Assembly: GCA_017416185.1 (NCBI GenBank)
Contig: JAFQDF010000012.1
Span: 32,965 to 96,964 of the forward strand
Direction: 5' to 3'
Length of the DNA: 64,000 nucleotides
DNA from: Clostridia bacterium
Lineage (GTDB): Bacteria > Bacillota > Clostridia > Oscillospirales > CAG-272
Shown: positions 22,873 through 51,612 of the stretch, in pieces
How positions within the stretch are numbered: the stretch's first letter is position 1
Layout of the letters: every line of letters starts with the position of its first letter
Program-made: the position numbers and the translations under genes
Notes under the pieces: generated by a model
The model's database searches: none
The model's input: the letters and a program-made list of their open reading frames with translations, nothing else
What the model was told of the DNA's origin: nothing

Positions 22873-22887
22873 TACAAAGTAGTTAAA

Positions 22888-22966
22888 AGCGCCTTGTAAC
22901 TGACGGACACAAGTGGAATAAACCACAGGGAAACAAGGTGTATATTATGTCGACCGTCTGGGCAGT
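22888..22966 (+). promoter_or_regulatory. ZTP (pfl-motif) riboswitch aptamer
   Basis: CCUUGU-AACUGACGGACA-AGUGG..CCAC-AGGGAAAC-AAGG, a linker, then CGACCGUCUGGGCA. This matches the conserved ACUGGCG / GGGA / CCGCCUGGGCA cores with a compensated pseudoknot (GACGG with CCGUC). Confidence 0.8.
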
Positions 22967-22997
22967 CCTACTTTGATAGGACTGTCCATGTTTTTTT
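22961..22997 (+). terminator. Expression-platform terminator of the ZTP riboswitch
   Basis: GGCAGTCCTA-ctttga-TAGGACTGTCC then ATGTTTTTTT. The 5' arm overlaps the aptamer 3' pseudoknot strand, as expected for an ON switch. Confidence 0.75.
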
Positions 22998-23116
22998 GCA
23001 GAAAAACAAAGGACAGTCAAAATAAAAGAGAAGAGAGAAAAGAGAAGAGATAAGAGAAAAGGTAACTTTTCGCTTTGCGAAAAGTAGTTTTGATTATAAT
23101 TAAAGTGAGGATAGAT

Positions 23117-23605
23117 ATGAAAAAAATTGCGATCATTATGGGCAGCACAAGCGACCTGCCCGTTGTAGAAAAGGCAGTTGATACCTTAAAGGATTTCGGC
23201 GTGCCTTATGAAGTAAGAGTTATGAGTGCTCACCGTACTCCCGAGGCGGCAAGAGAGTTTGCGCTTAAGGCACGAGAGAACGGCTTTGGTGCTATGATAT
23301 GTGCCGCAGGCATGGCAGCTCACCTTGCAGGTGCCTTTGCGGCAAACACTACACTTCCCGTTATCGGTATTCCTGTAAAGGGCTCTACCTTTGACGGACT
23401 TGACGCCCTGCTTTCCACCGTTCAGATGCCCTCGGGTATGCCTGTTGCAACCGTTGCAATAAACGGCGCGGCAAACGCGGCTCTGCTTGCAATTCAGATG
23501 CTTGCAATAACCGACGAGGACCTTGCGGCAAAGCTTGACGCACAGCGCAAGGCTAATACAGAGAAGATCTATGCGGCTGACGAAGAAGTAAGAAATAAAT
23601 ACTAA
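23117..23605 (+). CDS. purE: 5-(carboxyamino)imidazole ribonucleotide mutase
   Basis: MGSTSDLP and SAHRTP motifs. Start moved to MKKIAIIMG (23117) behind GTGAGGA. Confidence 0.9.
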   Translation: MKKIAIIMGSTSDLPVVEKAVDTLKDFGVPYEVRVMSAHRTPEAAREFALKARENGFGAMICAAGMAAHLAGAFAANTTLPVIGIPVKGSTFDGLDALLSTVQMPSGMPVATVAINGAANAALLAIQMLAITDEDLAAKLDAQRKANTEKIYAADEEVRNKY

Positions 23606-23837
23606 TGAATTGACATCTCCGATGTCATGAATTGCGACACAGTCGCATAAATTGATGCTTCGCATCATGAATTGCACCTGTAGTGCATTAAGGTAGCTTT
23701 TCGGCAAGCCAAAAAGCAATTCAATTAAAATTGATTTTCGCTTCAGCGAAAATCTTCCTTAATGTGCATCAGCACAATTCATGGCAAAGCCAATTCATGT
23801 TGAAAACAATTCATGAAACCGTAGGTTTCAATTCATC
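23604..23837 (+). repeat. Hairpin-array element, copy A (purE-purM gap)
   Basis: Five left 9-mers of CATGAATTG type and five right 9-mers of CAATTCATG type, separated by short palindromes, with two longer central hairpins. 234 bp. Confidence 0.85.
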
Positions 23838-23885
23838 CTGAATTTTAAAAATAATATTTGATAAATAAATCGAAAGGCTAAAATT

Positions 23886-24926
23886 ATGGAAAAGAGTTTC
23901 AGCGAAAGCTATAAGGCATCCGGTGTTGACATTACAGCCGGCTATAAAGCAGTAGAATTAATGAAGAGTCATATCGCAAAGACTATGACCAGCGGTGTTG
24001 TAAGTGATATCGGCGGCTTCGGCGGTCTTTTTGAGCTTGACGTAAAGGGAATGGAGAGACCCGTTCTCGTATCCGGTACAGACGGTGTCGGTACCAAGCT
24101 AAAGCTTGCTTTCCTTATGGACAAGCACGATACGGTTGGTATCGACTGTGTTGCAATGTGTGTAAACGACGTTATCTGCGTCGGTGCAAAGCCCCTTTTC
24201 TTCCTTGACTATATCGCCTGCGGTAAGAACGTTCCCGAGAAGATAGCAAATATCGTTTCCGGTATTGCCGAGGGTTGTGTTCAGTCAGGAGCAGCACTTA
24301 TCGGCGGTGAGACCGCAGAGATGCCGGGATTTTATCCCATCGACGAGTATGACCTTGCAGGCTTTACAGTAGGTGTGGTTGACCGTTCTAAAATCGTAGA
24401 TAAGACTGCCGTTTGCGAGGGTGACGTTATCATCGCTCTTCCCTCCTCCGGTGTTCACTCCAACGGCTTCTCCCTTGTAAGAAAGGTATTTGACGTTGAA
24501 AAGAATGATATTAAGACACCCGTTGCAGAGCTTGGCGGTAAGTCTGTAGGTGAGACACTTCTCACTCCCACAAAAATATACGTTAAGCCTATGCTTGCTC
24601 TCTTTGATGAGGTCAAGGTAAAGGCAGTTTCCCATATCACGGGCGGCGGCTTCTATGAAAACATTCCGAGATCTCTTCCCAAGGGATTCGGTGCAAAGAT
24701 CGAAAAGTCTGCAGTTCGTATTCTCCCCATCTTTGATCTTCTCGCAAAGACAGGTAATATCCCCGAGAGAGATATGTTCAATACCTTCAATATGGGCGTT
24801 GGTATGAGCGTTGTTGTAGCTAAAGAAGATGCTGACAAGGTACTTGAGATCCTGCGTGCAAACGGTGAGGACGCTTACATCATCGGTGAGACCTACAAGG
24901 GCGAGGAGCCTGTGGTAATATGTTAA
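23886..24926 (+). CDS. purM: Phosphoribosylformylglycinamidine cyclo-ligase (AIR synthetase)
   Basis: 346 aa with AIR synthetase motifs ([22 protein letters not shown]). Confidence 0.92.
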
Positions 24927-25534
24927 AGCAGAGCTTTTTCGGCAGTCTTGCCGCAGGAGTTATGCTGACTATCGGTGCGGGAGTTTTCCTCTCCTGCGAC
25001 AACAAGGTAGTGGGCGCAGTTGCCTTTTCGGTGGCGCTTATGGTCATCTGTATGCTGGGTATGTACCTATATACAGGTAAGATCGGTATGCTTGCCGAGG
25101 ACTACAGCCCGGTAAATTTAGGCTGTGTTACGGTAGGTCTTATCGGAAACTACATAACAGCGACCTTAGGCGGTCTGGTTTTGGGTCTTGTTAAGCCTGC
25201 TCTTTATGAAAAGGCTGTAACGATGTGTGAAGCTAAATTAGAGCAGAAATGGTATATCGCAATTATCCTCGGTATCTTCTGCGGAATACTGATGTACACC
25301 GCAGTCAAGGGCTATGCCAACACCAAGCAGCCTATCATTTTAGTATTCTGTGTTGCGGTGTTTATCCTTTCCGGATATGAGCACTCTATCGCGGATATGG
25401 CGTACTTCGGTGTTGCAAGGATGTTCGGACTTAAAACAGTATGCTTTATCCTGCTTGTAGTCCTTGGTAACACTATCGGCGGTATGCTGATACCTCTCCT
25501 TATGAAAGGTGCAAAGAAAAATGAGAAAAACTAA
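24920..25534 (+). CDS. Short formate/nitrite transporter (FNT) family membrane protein
   Basis: 204 aa, multi-[15 protein letters not shown] (compare FNT GFEHSVANM) and C-terminal LGNTIGGML (compare NxxGNxxGG). Confidence 0.65.
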
Positions 25535-26121: not shown

Positions 26122-26838
26122 ATGGCATTATTTGATCTTAAGAAATTATTATCCGAAAACACCTATCCCGGCAGAGGTATCGTAGTGGGAAAATCTGCGG
26201 ACGGAAAAAGTGCGATGATCGCATATTTCATTATGGGCAGAAGTGAAAACAGCCGTAACAGAATATTCGAGCGCTTTGAGGGCGGTATGAGAACAAAGGC
26301 TTTTGACGAGTCCAAGCTCTCCGACCCCAGCCTTATAATCTACAATCCCTACCTTAGTGCCAACGACGGCAAAACTGATATCATCACCAACGGTGATCAG
26401 ACAAACACCATCTATGATTTTGTAAACGAGGGTAAGACATTCGCAGAGGCTCTGCGTACCCGTGAGTTTGAGCCTGACTGCCCCAACTATACCCCCAGAA
26501 TTTCCGGAATCCTCGACTATGCCGATTCTGACTTTACATATAAGCTCTCTATTCTCAAGAGTGCAAACGGCCGTCCCGAGGTTTGTCAGCGTTTCTTCTA
26601 TGAATACGCTCCCGAAGCAGGTATAGGCCACTTTATCCACACCTACAAGTGTGACGGCAATCCCATTCCCTCCTTCTACGGCGAGCCCGAGGAGGTAGAG
26701 GTACCCAACACCGCAAAGGAGCTTGCTGATCTTTGCTGGGAGAACTTAAACGAGGACAATAAGGTTTCTCTCTTTGTCCGTCAGATTCCCCTTGACGGCA
26801 GTGAACCTATCGAAATTATCATAAACAAAAATGTTTAA
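26122..26838 (+). CDS. IMP cyclohydrolase, PurO-like stand-alone type
   Basis: 238 aa. N-terminus YPGRGIVVGKSADGKSAMIAYFIMGRSENSRNR is typical of the archaeal-type IMP cyclohydrolase family. It sits directly before the AICAR formyltransferase gene. Confidence 0.75.
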   Translation: MALFDLKKLLSENTYPGRGIVVGKSADGKSAMIAYFIMGRSENSRNRIFERFEGGMRTKAFDESKLSDPSLIIYNPYLSANDGKTDIITNGDQTNTIYDFVNEGKTFAEALRTREFEPDCPNYTPRISGILDYADSDFTYKLSILKSANGRPEVCQRFFYEYAPEAGIGHFIHTYKCDGNPIPSFYGEPEEVEVPNTAKELADLCWENLNEDNKVSLFVRQIPLDGSEPIEIIINKNV

Positions 26839-26851
26839 AGGAGTAACTGAA

Positions 26852-28036
26852 ATGAAAGAATTTGAACTTAAATACGGTTGTAACCCCAATCAGAAGCCTG
26901 CAAAGATATTTATGCACGACGGCACAGAGCTTCCCATCAAGATCCTCTGCGGACGTCCCGGCTTTATCAACTTCCTTGACGCATTCAACTCCTGGCAGCT
27001 TGTAAAGGAGCTTAAAGAAGCTCTCGGTATGCCTGCAGTTACCTCCTTTAAGCACGTTTCCCCCACCTCTGCGGCTGTCGGTACTCCCCTTTCCGACAAG
27101 CTCAAGAAGGCTTGCTTCGTTGACGATATCGAAGGTCTGGATGATTCTCCTCTCGCTTGTGCTTACGCAAGAGCAAGAGGTACAGACCGTATGTGCTCCT
27201 TCGGTGACTGGGTAGCACTTTCCGACGTTTGTGACGTTACCACAGCTACAATGATAAAGAGAGAGGTATCCGACGGCGTTATCGCTCCCGGCTATGAGCC
27301 CGAGGCACTTGAAATTCTCAAATCCAAGAGAAACGGTAACTACAATATCGTTGAGATCGATCCCAATTACGTTCCCGCCGAGATCGAGCATAAGCAGGTT
27401 TACGGCATCACCTTTGAGCAGGGCAGAAATAACTTCAAGATCGACAATGAGCTTCTCTCCAATATTGTTACCGCAAACAAGGAGCTTCCCGATTCCGCAA
27501 AGCGTGACCTTATCATCTCTCTTATCACTCTTAAGTACACCCAGTCCAATTCCGTATGCTTTGCAGTAGACGGACAGGCTATCGGTGTAGGTGCAGGTCA
27601 GCAGTCCAGAGTTCACTGTACACGTCTTGCAGGCTCTAAGGCTGACACCTGGTTCCTTCGTCAGTATGACAAGGTGCTTAACCTCCCCTTCAAGGCAGAT
27701 ATCAAGCGTCCCGACCGTGACAACGTTATCGACGGTTATATCAACCGTAACGAGGAGGACGTTTGCGCAGACGGTAACTGGCAGAAGTACTTTACCGAGC
27801 AGCCCGAGCCTCTGACCGATGCCGAGATCAGAGCATATCTTGACACCATTGACGGCGTAGCTCTCGGCTCTGATGCATTCTTCCCCTTCAGCGACAATAT
27901 CGAGCGCGCAAAGAAGTCCGGTGTTAAGTACATCGCAGAGCCCGGCGGATCTATCCGTGACGATATCGTTATCGAGTGCTGCGACAAGTACGGTATGGCA
28001 ATGGCATTTACCGGAATGCGTTTATTCCATCATTAA
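26852..28036 (+). CDS. purH: AICAR formyltransferase (PurH transformylase domain only)
   Basis: 394 aa. LKYGCNPNQ and the C-terminal AEPGGSIRD...MRLFHH are characteristic of the AICARFT domain. There is no MGS-like cyclohydrolase domain. ATG 26852 lies behind AAAGGAG. Confidence 0.85.
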   Translation: MKEFELKYGCNPNQKPAKIFMHDGTELPIKILCGRPGFINFLDAFNSWQLVKELKEALGMPAVTSFKHVSPTSAAVGTPLSDKLKKACFVDDIEGLDDSPLACAYARARGTDRMCSFGDWVALSDVCDVTTATMIKREVSDGVIAPGYEPEALEILKSKRNGNYNIVEIDPNYVPAEIEHKQVYGITFEQGRNNFKIDNELLSNIVTANKELPDSAKRDLIISLITLKYTQSNSVCFAVDGQAIGVGAGQQSRVHCTRLAGSKADTWFLRQYDKVLNLPFKADIKRPDRDNVIDGYINRNEEDVCADGNWQKYFTEQPEPLTDAEIRAYLDTIDGVALGSDAFFPFSDNIERAKKSGVKYIAEPGGSIRDDIVIECCDKYGMAMAFTGMRLFHH

Positions 28037-28046
28037 AACCTTCGGG

Positions 28047-28280
28047 CATGAATTGAAGCCTATGGCTTCATGAATTGGTTTCACCATAAATTGATGCTTT
28101 GCATCATGAATTGCACCTATGGTGCATTAAGGAAGCTTTTCGGCTCACCGAAAAGCAATTCAATTAAAATGATTTTTGCCAAAGCAAAAATCTTCCTTAA
28201 TGTATCCGAAGGATACAATTCATGACCGTAGGTCAATTCATGTCACTGACAATTCATGACATCGAAGATGTCAATTCATC
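28047..28280 (+). repeat. Hairpin-array element, copy B (purH-purD gap)
   Basis: Same 234-bp architecture and the same 9-mers as copy A. The side hairpins differ in sequence but remain palindromic. Confidence 0.85.
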
Positions 28281-51406: not shown

Positions 51407-51424
51407 AAAATTTACCCAATAAAA

Positions 51425-51612
51425 GATAGCGCTCCACAAATGTGACAGTATACGGCGTATTATCACCGCATCCCAGGGGTGCCCAGGGCACCGACGACAA
51501 TCGCAGCTTGTTAAGCTCACGCTGTTTACATTCTGCCCGAATTGAAGCGATCCTGTTACATCCCTTCGGCCGCTGCCCCTTTTAATTGACACGCGGCACC
51601 TCTATCGTTGTA
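51425..51612 (-). promoter_or_regulatory. Lysine riboswitch (L-box) aptamer
   Basis: The minus strand reads GAUAGAGGUGCC...GGGGCAGCGGCCGAAGGG...ACUGUCAC...GUGGAGCGCUAUC. This matches the conserved L-box cores seen in B. subtilis lysC and T. maritima. Confidence 0.85.

Follow-up and report, generated by a model that had tools for sequence, protein, structure and literature searches.

The window analysed here is a 64,000-nt stretch of a Clostridia bacterium genome (contig JAFQDF010000012.1). It contains a pur operon (purE...purL) in which two copies of an intergenic palindromic element, designated A and B, are embedded on the strand of the operon. Copy A lies between purE and purM, and copy B between the stop codon of a purH-like AICARFT gene and purD. 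The operon is headed by a ZTP (ZMP/pfl) riboswitch, after which comes a terminator-like hairpin with a T-run (Table 1).

The two copies are built alike. Four 9-mer linkers (CATGAATTG, one of the four being CATAAATTG), each followed by a short spacer, lead to a fifth, longer linker, CATTAAGGnAG. Two hairpins with 9-bp stems then surround CAATTCAATTAAAAT, and they are followed by CTTCCTTAATG, which is the complement of the fifth linker and pairs with it, and by four spacers, each succeeded by CAATTCATG. The arms are mirror arrays, and the inverted repeats detected in them (I1-I3) make the termini complementary, so that a long stem-loop is possible. All 12 exact matches to the 9-mer in the window fall inside the two copies, compared with a chance expectation of about 0.5 in 64 kb (from 4^9), and the two copies share, letter for letter, the core AATTCAATTAAAA, which has no other occurrence in the window. 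On either strand, the fold of both copies beats that of shuffled sequence (z = -6.9 to -10.4). Searches of Rfam 15 returned nothing credible on either element up to E = 10; the gathering score is reached in the window by ZTP, T-box and lysine riboswitches alone.

A preliminary description of the two copies, based on their letters, had reported nearly identical linkers and core combined with side hairpins that differ in sequence and stay palindromic. Every item of that comparison is present, the 9-mer linkers and the common core being exact. The change from GATTTTCGC/GCGAAAATC to GATTTTTGC/GCAAAAATC is a genuine double change from C-G to T-A, and the C·A mismatch in GCTTTTCGGC/GCCAAAAAGC of copy A is real, pairing in copy B being perfect. 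The resemblances between different slots also hold: the first hairpin of A is similar to the last of B, and the last hairpin of A to the sixth side hairpin of B (or the eighth, counting the two central hairpins). Most side hairpins of copy B are indeed palindromic; the exceptions are slot 2 (GTTTCAC), which makes no hairpin alone, and slot 7 (TCACTGA), which pairs only with the help of flanking TG/CA.

Table 1. Features of the pur operon region and of the rest of the window (window positions)
Feature	Position	Strand	Content
ZTP (ZMP/pfl) riboswitch	22886-22970		64 bits
Terminator-like hairpin and T-run	22959-22988		after the ZTP riboswitch
Solitary hairpin	23065-23085	+	ACTTTTCGCtttGCGAAAAGT; between the ZTP riboswitch terminator and purE
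purE, end	23605
Copy A, whole	23604-23837	+
Copy A, linkers	23604, 23626, 23646, 23666	+	mirrored: 23775, 23791, 23807, 23829
Copy A, left arm	23604-23696	+	linkers AATGAATTG (overlaps the purE stop TAA), CATGAATTG, CATAAATTG, CATGAATTG; fifth linker CATTAAGGTAG
Copy A, left-arm hairpins			ACATctccgATGT, CGACacaGTCG, ATGCttcGCAT, CACctgtaGTG
Copy A, centre	23697-23754	+	CTTTTCGGCaaGCCAAAAAG (one C·A mismatch), CAATTCAATTAAAATT, GATTTTCGCttcaGCGAAAATC
Copy A, right arm	23754-23837	+	CTTCCTTAATG, TGCatcaGCA, CAATTCATG, GCaaaGC, CAATTCATG, TTGAAAA, CAATTCATG, AAACCgtaGGTTT, CAATTCATC
Spacer after copy A	23838-23885	+	48 nt, A+T-rich; holds the purM ribosome-binding site; only in genomes with copy A
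purM, start	23886
PF01226 reading frame	24920-25534		between purM and purN
AICARFT gene (purH-like)	26831-28036
Stretch before copy B	28037-28046	+	AACCTTCGGG; AICARFT stop to first linker; kept, non-inverted, in L126/L127
Copy B, whole	28047-28280	+
Copy B, linkers	28047, 28069, 28085 (CATAAATTG), 28105	+	mirrored: 28216, 28234, 28250, 28272
Copy B, left arm	28047-28135	+	CATGAATTG at 28047, 28069, 28105; CATAAATTG at 28085; fifth linker CATTAAGGAAG at 28125-28135
Copy B, left-arm spacers			AAGCCtatGGCTT, GTTTCAC, ATGCtttGCAT, CACCtatGGTG
Copy B, enlarged centre	28136-28192	+	hairpin CTTTTCGGctcaCCGAAAAG 28136-28155; A+T-rich core CAATTCAATTAAAAT 28156-28170; hairpin GATTTTTGCcaaaGCAAAAATC 28171-28192
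Copy B, right arm, first part	28192-28280 (whole arm)	+	CTTCCTTAATG 28192-28202, TATCCgaaGGATA, CAATTCATG 28216, ACCgtaGGT, CAATTCATG 28234
Copy B, right arm, second part			TCACTGA, CAATTCATG 28250, ACATCgaaGATGT, CAATTCATC 28272-28280
purD, start	28305
T-box leader	46570-46817	+	115 bits
Lysine riboswitch	51419-51612	-	55 bits

Syntenic contigs reached through PurM homologues reveal how the two sites differ among relatives. In a contig with 100% nucleotide identity to the window (L125), both elements are present and identical. At 88% identity (L126/L127), the A site holds the element in the same orientation and 95-97% identical, the flanking coding DNA being 90-92% identical, and the B site holds it inverted between identical flanks. 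At about 86% (L124), the A site is empty, with a 14-nt gap, and the B site retains a remnant made of one central hairpin and TCTCCTTAAT. Of two contigs at 82%, one (L122) is empty at both sites; the other (L123) is empty at the A site and has at the B site an element with an inverted centre, in which TATCCgaaGGATA occupies the last slot and not, as in window copy B, the first of the right arm. Copy B and its L126 counterpart are 84% identical when one is inverted and 73% in direct comparison. The reverse complement of the L126/L127 copy matches B slot by slot, with TATCCttcGGATA identical and two slots replaced; the centre of copy B is found inverted there as well as in L123. The 48-nt spacer accompanying copy A is 100% identical between the window and L126.

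Since the stems are palindromic, an inversion preserves every hairpin and the order of linkers on the transcribed strand. Gain, loss and inversion in place all occur in these elements, as does remodelling of single modules, and the swapping of hairpins between slots largely reflects DNA rearrangement; if inverted linkers recombine by inversion, a mirror relation such as the likeness of the first hairpin of A to the last of B is to be expected. The modular exchange of units suggested in the preliminary description is borne out, whole modules having been duplicated, lost or replaced. Its choice of a functional structure over simple duplication proved to be a false one, because copy A, whose site is empty in L122, L123 and L124, is one more copy of a dispersed repeat, specific to its lineage.

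Smaller traces of such modules may also be present in the operon. The solitary hairpin ACTTTTCGCtttGCGAAAAGT upstream of purE is similar to the hairpins at the centre of the elements and to the L124 remnant, and may be a remnant module, the relic of a third element. CCttcGG, within the stretch that precedes copy B, is a common hairpin module of the element family, and this stretch may be a fixed outer module. As to the genes, the IMP cyclohydrolase (PF07826) and AICARFT domains are encoded separately in the operon, and a reading frame of about 200 residues with a match to PF01226 (formate/nitrite transporter) lies between purM and purN in the window, L124 (6577-7155) and L125 (6535-7149), being absent from L122, L123 and L126. 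Among the PurM homologues, a seeming PurE-PurM fusion (P0001) turned out to be PurM with an internal duplication; in the gene for the 522-residue PurM of L121 (69-1637), about 530 nt are internally duplicated in tandem, which may be an assembly artefact. Neither the window PurM nor P0002 has an exact match on record.

Copies A and B are members of a large family. When one genome of each prokaryotic species was scanned for three exact linkers in a row, at least 117 stretches were found, and family-level counts given below draw on the matches listed in it. Nearly all of the listed stretches originate from uncultured gut or rumen Clostridia (Oscillospiraceae, Acutalibacteraceae, Christensenellales); the non-Clostridia matches that were read (L003, L009, L024) are plain tandem repeats. 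A covariance model (R1) built from 14 elements recovers about 62 distinct elements among the matches listed, in addition to copy B (87.4 bits) and copy A (87.2 bits). All elements are intergenic. The family displays terminal inverted repeats and many dispersed copies: several listed loci come from the same metagenome-assembled genomes (MAGs), and the window has two copies in 64 kb. Elements are also present in IMG/VR viral contigs.

The canonical member is about 160 nt long. Its left part consists of AATGAATTG, hairpin 1, CATGAATTG, hairpin 2, CATGAATTG, hairpin 3, CATGAATTG and hairpin 4; its centre is CAT...GGCAATT; and its right part consists of CAATTCATG, hairpin 5, CAATTCATG, hairpin 6, CAATTCATG, hairpin 7 and CAATTCAT(T/C/A). 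Canonical elements are clearly polar; one example scores 165 bits on one strand and 85 on the other. The window copies represent a nearly symmetric subtype with an enlarged centre of about 70 nt, which is also found in L123 and in another MAG (L117), where two enlarged-centre copies lie inside an rnf operon. A metagenome scan for the enlarged centre (CATTAAGG...CAATTCAATTAAAA) gave three matches, all of them chance matches in coding DNA. One-directional arrays, which reach 11 modules (L094), indicate that the basic unit is a linker plus a palindrome, and module duplications are seen in L114, L115 and L022. We found no description of these elements or arrays in the literature, and a search with the 9-mer returned only microRNA and primer papers. 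The family is thus widespread in gut and rumen Clostridia and apparently undescribed.

Several known kinds of feature could be set aside. A CRISPR array, for which we took repeats of at least 20 nt, unique non-palindromic spacers and cas genes as criteria, is ruled out, as the repeats here are 9 nt, the spacers are palindromes of 7-14 nt and the array is mirrored. The terminator reading fails on anatomy, since a U-tract terminator is missing from the + strand of both copies. CATGAAT recalls the ARG box (ArgR/AhrC), but its half-sites would be direct rather than inverted on duplex DNA and their spacing varies. Small reading frames in the linkers (AUG AAU UGA) lose their frame across the variable spacers.

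Which parts of the element are constrained was assessed in 25 canonical elements, using an alignment fitted to the model. All hairpin helices show double changes, at 5/5, 4/4, 3/3 and 4/5 pairs in the four main helices. Paired cells amount to 92.6% versus 84.8% in shuffles, a level that none of 500 shuffles reached, and the covariation score is 0.225 compared with 0.100 for shuffled alignments and at most 0.056 with partners slid. The expectation that stem changes would exceed chance once more copies were aligned is therefore confirmed, and alignment and folding with MAFFT and RNAalifold, not fitted to the structure, agree with it (double changes in 17/47 and 22/78 pairs). Linkers behave otherwise: double changes are absent from the putative linker-linker helices, and in eight sequences the second right linker (R2) carries a T-to-A variant that is uncompensated. 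The linkers are therefore conserved as sequence, and pairing between them is ruled out as the cause of their conservation. According to RNAalifold, the TG and CA of flanking linkers extend each hairpin, leaving TGAAT (left) and ATTCA (right) as the effective single-stranded linkers. The linkers, treated as passive in the preliminary description, are the most constrained part of the element.

As to the stems, 155 of the 290 unique segments form perfect palindromes, and under a strict definition a single G·U occurs in only 2 and A·C in 6; a crude count (121 G·U versus 78 A·C) was noisy, did not survive the strict definition and supports no strand conclusion. Because almost all stems are perfectly Watson-Crick paired, there is no sign of the wobble that a constraint on RNA alone would be expected to leave. 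Moreover, 570 modules use just 111 distinct stems, with a recurrent vocabulary (GC, CC/GG, ACC/GGT, AGCC/GGCT, AAATC, ACAAC, ATGC, CACC, AAGCC) to which most window hairpins belong. Template-switch correction of quasi-palindromes could produce double changes in one step. Scarce G·U and one-step double changes fit mutational maintenance of a DNA palindrome, either by template switching or by frequent inversion that leaves only Watson-Crick pairs orientation-proof, at least as well as they fit compensatory selection on RNA. The proposal that selection acts on structure and not on hairpin sequence accordingly stands in part: the hairpins covary while their sequence varies, but much of the swapping reflects DNA rearrangement and not slow compensatory drift.

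Canonical elements have an additional pairing. The three bases before the central CAATT complement the first three after the first linker in 39 of 49 elements, with at least seven different covarying combinations; the controls, made with other hairpins, give 2, 3 and 7. This supports a predicted long-range helix closing the left arm. The canonical centre also repeats the 3' half of hairpin 1 (for example, in L040 5512-5671 and L177 1016-1190). Two mutually exclusive pairings, that is, a conformational switch, are possible in canonical elements as judged from their sequence.

A gene for a four-helix-bundle protein is the sole gene found inside the arrays or attached to them. Among the matches listed, it accompanies 10 elements, adjoining nine of them and being enclosed by the element in L021. 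The adjoining gene starts 15-20 nt after the element, and its product (MKENxLVDLSKQFAVDIVNLC...) belongs to Pfam family PF05635, '23S rRNA intervening-sequence protein' (E = 2e-25 to 5e-26). A search with this subfamily gave 6620 matches at E up to 1e-20, of which the top 120 are 84-99% identical. In every looked-up contig of the subfamily, a CATGAATTG element fills the gap of about 150 nt upstream of the gene in a single orientation, and the gene follows one for an m5U RNA methyltransferase (PF05958, RlmCD/TrmA-like). In its canonical form, the element is a 5' leader of fixed polarity to a conserved PF05635 gene, an Avd homologue.

Some details of these loci can be added. In L177-L192, the gene spans 1201-1554 and the element about 1016-1190, and what lies downstream of the PF05635 gene varies with the lineage; after the gene, L177 contains part of a second element copy, which runs into a scaffold gap. 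Many canonical elements have TATAAT and a 5' hairpin upstream. In the right arm of many elements (L090 6913-7086, L100 1503-1666), a module of the form CAATTCATG-GAG(stem-loop)GAG-AAATCATG recurs, as in GAGCGaaGCGAG and GAGGAGGCnnnnGCCGACGAG; its GAG...GAG flanks have no canonical pairing and recall tandem sheared G·A pairs, and the linker after it is always the variant GAAATCATG. Downstream of canonical elements L080, L097 and L114 there is a conserved tail, ...TATAAT-GATTTCATCaaaGATGAAATC-GTCGATATGAA. A similar sequence lies upstream of a PF05635-like reading frame without a clean start in L137.

Arrays with other motifs accompany other PF05635 genes. L027 has TTGATGATATACAA with hairpins, and L096 has AATATCGAATT with hairpins on both sides of the gene. 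Phage-borne PF05635 genes are found with GTGAAAT/ATTTCAC, GTGAAGC/CCTTCAC and ATGATAT/TATATCAT, again with hairpins, and plain inverted arrays of 6-8-mers flank further genes (AGTTAGG/CCTAACT, TAATGAGT/ACTCATTA, TAATTCG/CGAATTA and others). The best exact 6-mer occurs at least three times per strand in 17 of 21 PF05635 gene flanks compared with 17 of 173 control windows, and at least four times per strand in 10/21 compared with 3/173. Exact 6-mers were used for this statistic after 7-mers with one mismatch had given too high a background. In the hairpin-type families that were read, each arm has, counted by eye, four good repeats and a degenerate inner one.

In two related phage genomes (L150, L152), a PF05635 gene occupies the same intergenic site but is flanked by different heptamer motifs, which is consistent with the motif co-varying with the protein. 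Several PF05635 cassettes or orphan elements stand directly after a tRNA gene and terminator, both in viral contigs (L129, L130/L131, L132, L134/L135) and elsewhere (L093, L110). Repeat arrays beside PF05635 genes might also contribute to the scores of Altae-Tran et al. (PMC10910872).

What does this protein do? The PF05635 alignment matches PDB 2RLD, a structure with five chains. The four-helix-bundle protein is not known to have a catalytic activity, and the function of PF05635 (S23p/IVP) has been unknown for 30 years outside diversity-generating retroelements (DGRs). S23p has been described as a homopentameric toroid, and rRNA intervening sequences (IVSs) as selfish elements that have inverted repeats at their borders and are cut out by RNase III (PMC4990558). 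The pentameric Avd, a basic barrel 'similar to S23 ribosomal proteins', has a defined RNA element as its binding partner (bioRxiv 10.1101/2023.10.23.563531). We tentatively propose, as a possibility well short of probable, that PF05635 proteins are sequence-specific binders of five-fold short-repeat arrays, each subfamily co-evolving with its own 6-9-nt motif, and that the hairpin spacers would only fold away and so align the motifs around the pentameric ring.

The link to PF05635, together with equivalent arrays in other lineages and phages, places the elements with palindromic elements of the IVS type, here in mRNA operons and not in rRNA. For the window, the reading that we favour, and to which we give about an even chance, is that copies A and B are gene-less (orphan) IVS-like modular palindromes, members of this family, co-transcribed in the pur operon. 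If so, the small hairpins would fold out after transcription with the pur genes and bring the linkers together into a rod or multi-way junction. This could then be read sequence-specifically, most plausibly by a cognate PF05635 pentamer. By analogy with IVSs and the Correia repeats of Neisseria, the folded element would also be a likely substrate for a double-strand RNase. The net effect may be intercistronic processing or stabilisation at purE|purM and AICARFT|purD, or the elements may be merely tolerated selfish insertions. Recombination or template switching between inverted linkers would change modules and swap slots with pairing kept. The gene-less copies would thus be either tolerated selfish insertions or trans-acting sites for the PF05635 protein.

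A number of points weigh against this interpretation. The PF05635 gene was not found in the 64-kb window, the window copies having no reading frame, and a single conserved PF05635 locus in the clade is more suggestive of a stable host gene than of a mobile cassette. In the window subtype, the long-range L1/centre helix of canonical elements is absent and polarity is only weakly marked (for copy B, 87 bits on one strand and 85 on the other). Linker invariance arises partly by construction, as the scan pattern demanded three exact linkers; linkers outside the pattern are equally conserved, and loci reached via the PF05635 protein show the same linkers. Binding of the linkers by the protein is pure inference. 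So is RNase III cleavage, for which branch hairpins every 9 bp make the arms a poor classical substrate. The near absence of G·U offers no positive evidence for RNA over DNA as the selected form. Finally, no target-site duplication and no transposase were found at the sites and among the neighbours of the elements seen.

It could be argued that the elements are operators regulated in trans, the canonical element being an autoregulatory leader of PF05635 and the orphans upstream of purM, purD, rnf and other genes a dispersed regulon and not selfish DNA. Several observations fit this idea. What is conserved in the linkers is their sequence, and in all looked-up contigs the element has the same polarity and stops 15-20 nt short of the PF05635 start codon. 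In 18 of 41 elements, a Shine-Dalgarno sequence and start codon follow within 90 nt on the same strand, whereas none of the 41 has them in the mirror direction. Conservation of copy A and its spacer (95-100%) equals or exceeds that of the flanking coding DNA (90-92%). However, the genes downstream of orphan elements are unrelated (LysR, lipoproteins, an MscS-like channel, XRE, RnfD and RnfB in the single operon of L117, Pur) and have no common theme, close relatives manage without elements at the same sites, and inversion in place is tolerated. We therefore regard a dispersed regulon as unlikely.

The same holds, to a similar degree, for a DNA-level mobile element, that is, a miniature inverted-repeat transposable element (MITE), whose arms would be terminal inverted repeats for a transposase or recombinase, with the hairpins a by-product and the PF05635 gene a mere frequent neighbour or cargo. 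Multiple copies per genome, presence or absence among related genomes, occurrence in viral contigs and module duplications would all be expected of such an element, and perfect Watson-Crick stems mean that both strands are equally constrained. On the other hand, no target-site duplication is recognisable at the empty A sites of L122, L123 and L124, where the flanks have diverged; in filled sites the extra 48-nt spacer accompanies the element. No transposase lies beside any element seen, nor was an autonomous transposase partner with the same ends found. The strong sense polarity and the covarying long-range helix are hard to explain on duplex DNA, and the linker spacing of 16 to 23 bp is poor for phased binding to it.

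The preliminary description had favoured a structured non-coding RNA or single-stranded DNA, with hairpins kept by independent compensatory mutations and A and B as functional paralogues. Covarying hairpins, folding energies far better than those of shuffled sequence, clear polarity and the long-range helix of the canonical type speak for it. Nevertheless, G·U pairs are almost absent, stems are drawn from a shared vocabulary, inversion and module replacement explain the slot changes, relatives exist without the elements and there is no Rfam match, which makes this view quite improbable as stated. A programmed invertible switch (inverton) controlling purD or purM could account for the inversion of B between identical flanks in L126/L127 and of the L123 centre, but it is very improbable indeed, considering that a flip restores the same linker order on the transcribed strand and changes little, that no promoter-like site exists in copy B and copy A is only touched over its first bases by a single 9-of-12 match on the minus strand (23628-23599; matches around copy A being in total no more numerous than in shuffles), that the neighbours are pur genes with no adjacent recombinase gene, that the two orientations are seen across genomes 88% identical and not within one population, and that canonical elements hold one orientation across species.

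How do gene-less IVS-like palindromes compare with known systems? The 23S rRNA IVSs of Leptospira, Coxiella, Salmonella and Campylobacter are likewise bordered by palindromes, fold into a long stem-loop and occur either with a PF05635 four-helix-bundle gene or in a short form without it; their distribution is sporadic, and they are regarded as selfish (PMC4990558). In contrast, the window copies are situated in mRNA intergenic regions of the pur operon and not in rRNA helices 9, 25 or 45, the window having no rRNA match. Their arms are short-linker arrays with branch hairpins instead of one continuous 28-bp stem, and in the canonical type the gene lies downstream of the complete palindrome and not, as in IVSs, in the loop. 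Correia/NEMIS repeats of Neisseria and enterobacterial ERIC are miniature inverted-repeat elements transcribed within operons, whose hairpins are processed and alter mRNA stability. Like the elements described here, they are palindromic intergenic repeats of 100-250 bp in many copies, often intercistronic and co-transcribed, with presence varying between strains. They differ in having defined terminal repeats with target duplications (TA for Correia), no linker/hairpin modularity and no four-helix-bundle gene, and there is no sequence similarity. Pneumococcal BOX (boxA-boxB(n)-boxC) is also a modular intergenic repeat with a variable module number and a predicted stable RNA structure; its modules, however, are 45-59 nt long and conserved in sequence, there is no alternation of linkers and variable palindromes, and the host range is different at the phylum level.

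REP palindromes and their mosaics (BIME), mobilised by RAYT, are short extragenic palindromes in mosaic arrays of direct and inverted orientation. They are situated in the intergenic parts of operons and have been proposed as mRNA stabilisers (PMC3733652). In REP, the palindrome itself (20-40 bp) is conserved and bears a GTAG/CGTC tag, whereas here the palindromes vary, the linkers CATGAATTG/CAATTCATG are conserved without such a tag, and no RAYT gene was seen. As to Avd and its RNA in DGRs, the partner protein family is the same kind of pentameric, basic four-helix-bundle barrel binding a structured RNA, but there is no reverse transcriptase, template or variable repeat here, and the RNA bound by Avd is not a repeat array.

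These elements constitute a large unannotated repeat family inside operons of gut and rumen Clostridia, one that also breaks assemblies (many PF05635 contigs are shorter than 1 kb, and L177 ends its second copy in a gap). The two copies in the pur operon are a cautionary case as well, since inversion in place and module shuffling of a palindromic DNA repeat can mimic compensatory evolution between two copies. The connection with PF05635 ties the elements to the long-puzzling rRNA intervening sequences and yields a testable hypothesis for the four-helix-bundle proteins, namely recognition of five-fold short-repeat arrays. If it is correct, arrays with or without the gene would form an unrecognised class of RNA (or DNA)-protein elements across Clostridia, cyanobacteria-like lineages and phages, of which rRNA intervening sequences would represent a special case, copies A and B being orphan binding sites in an operon.

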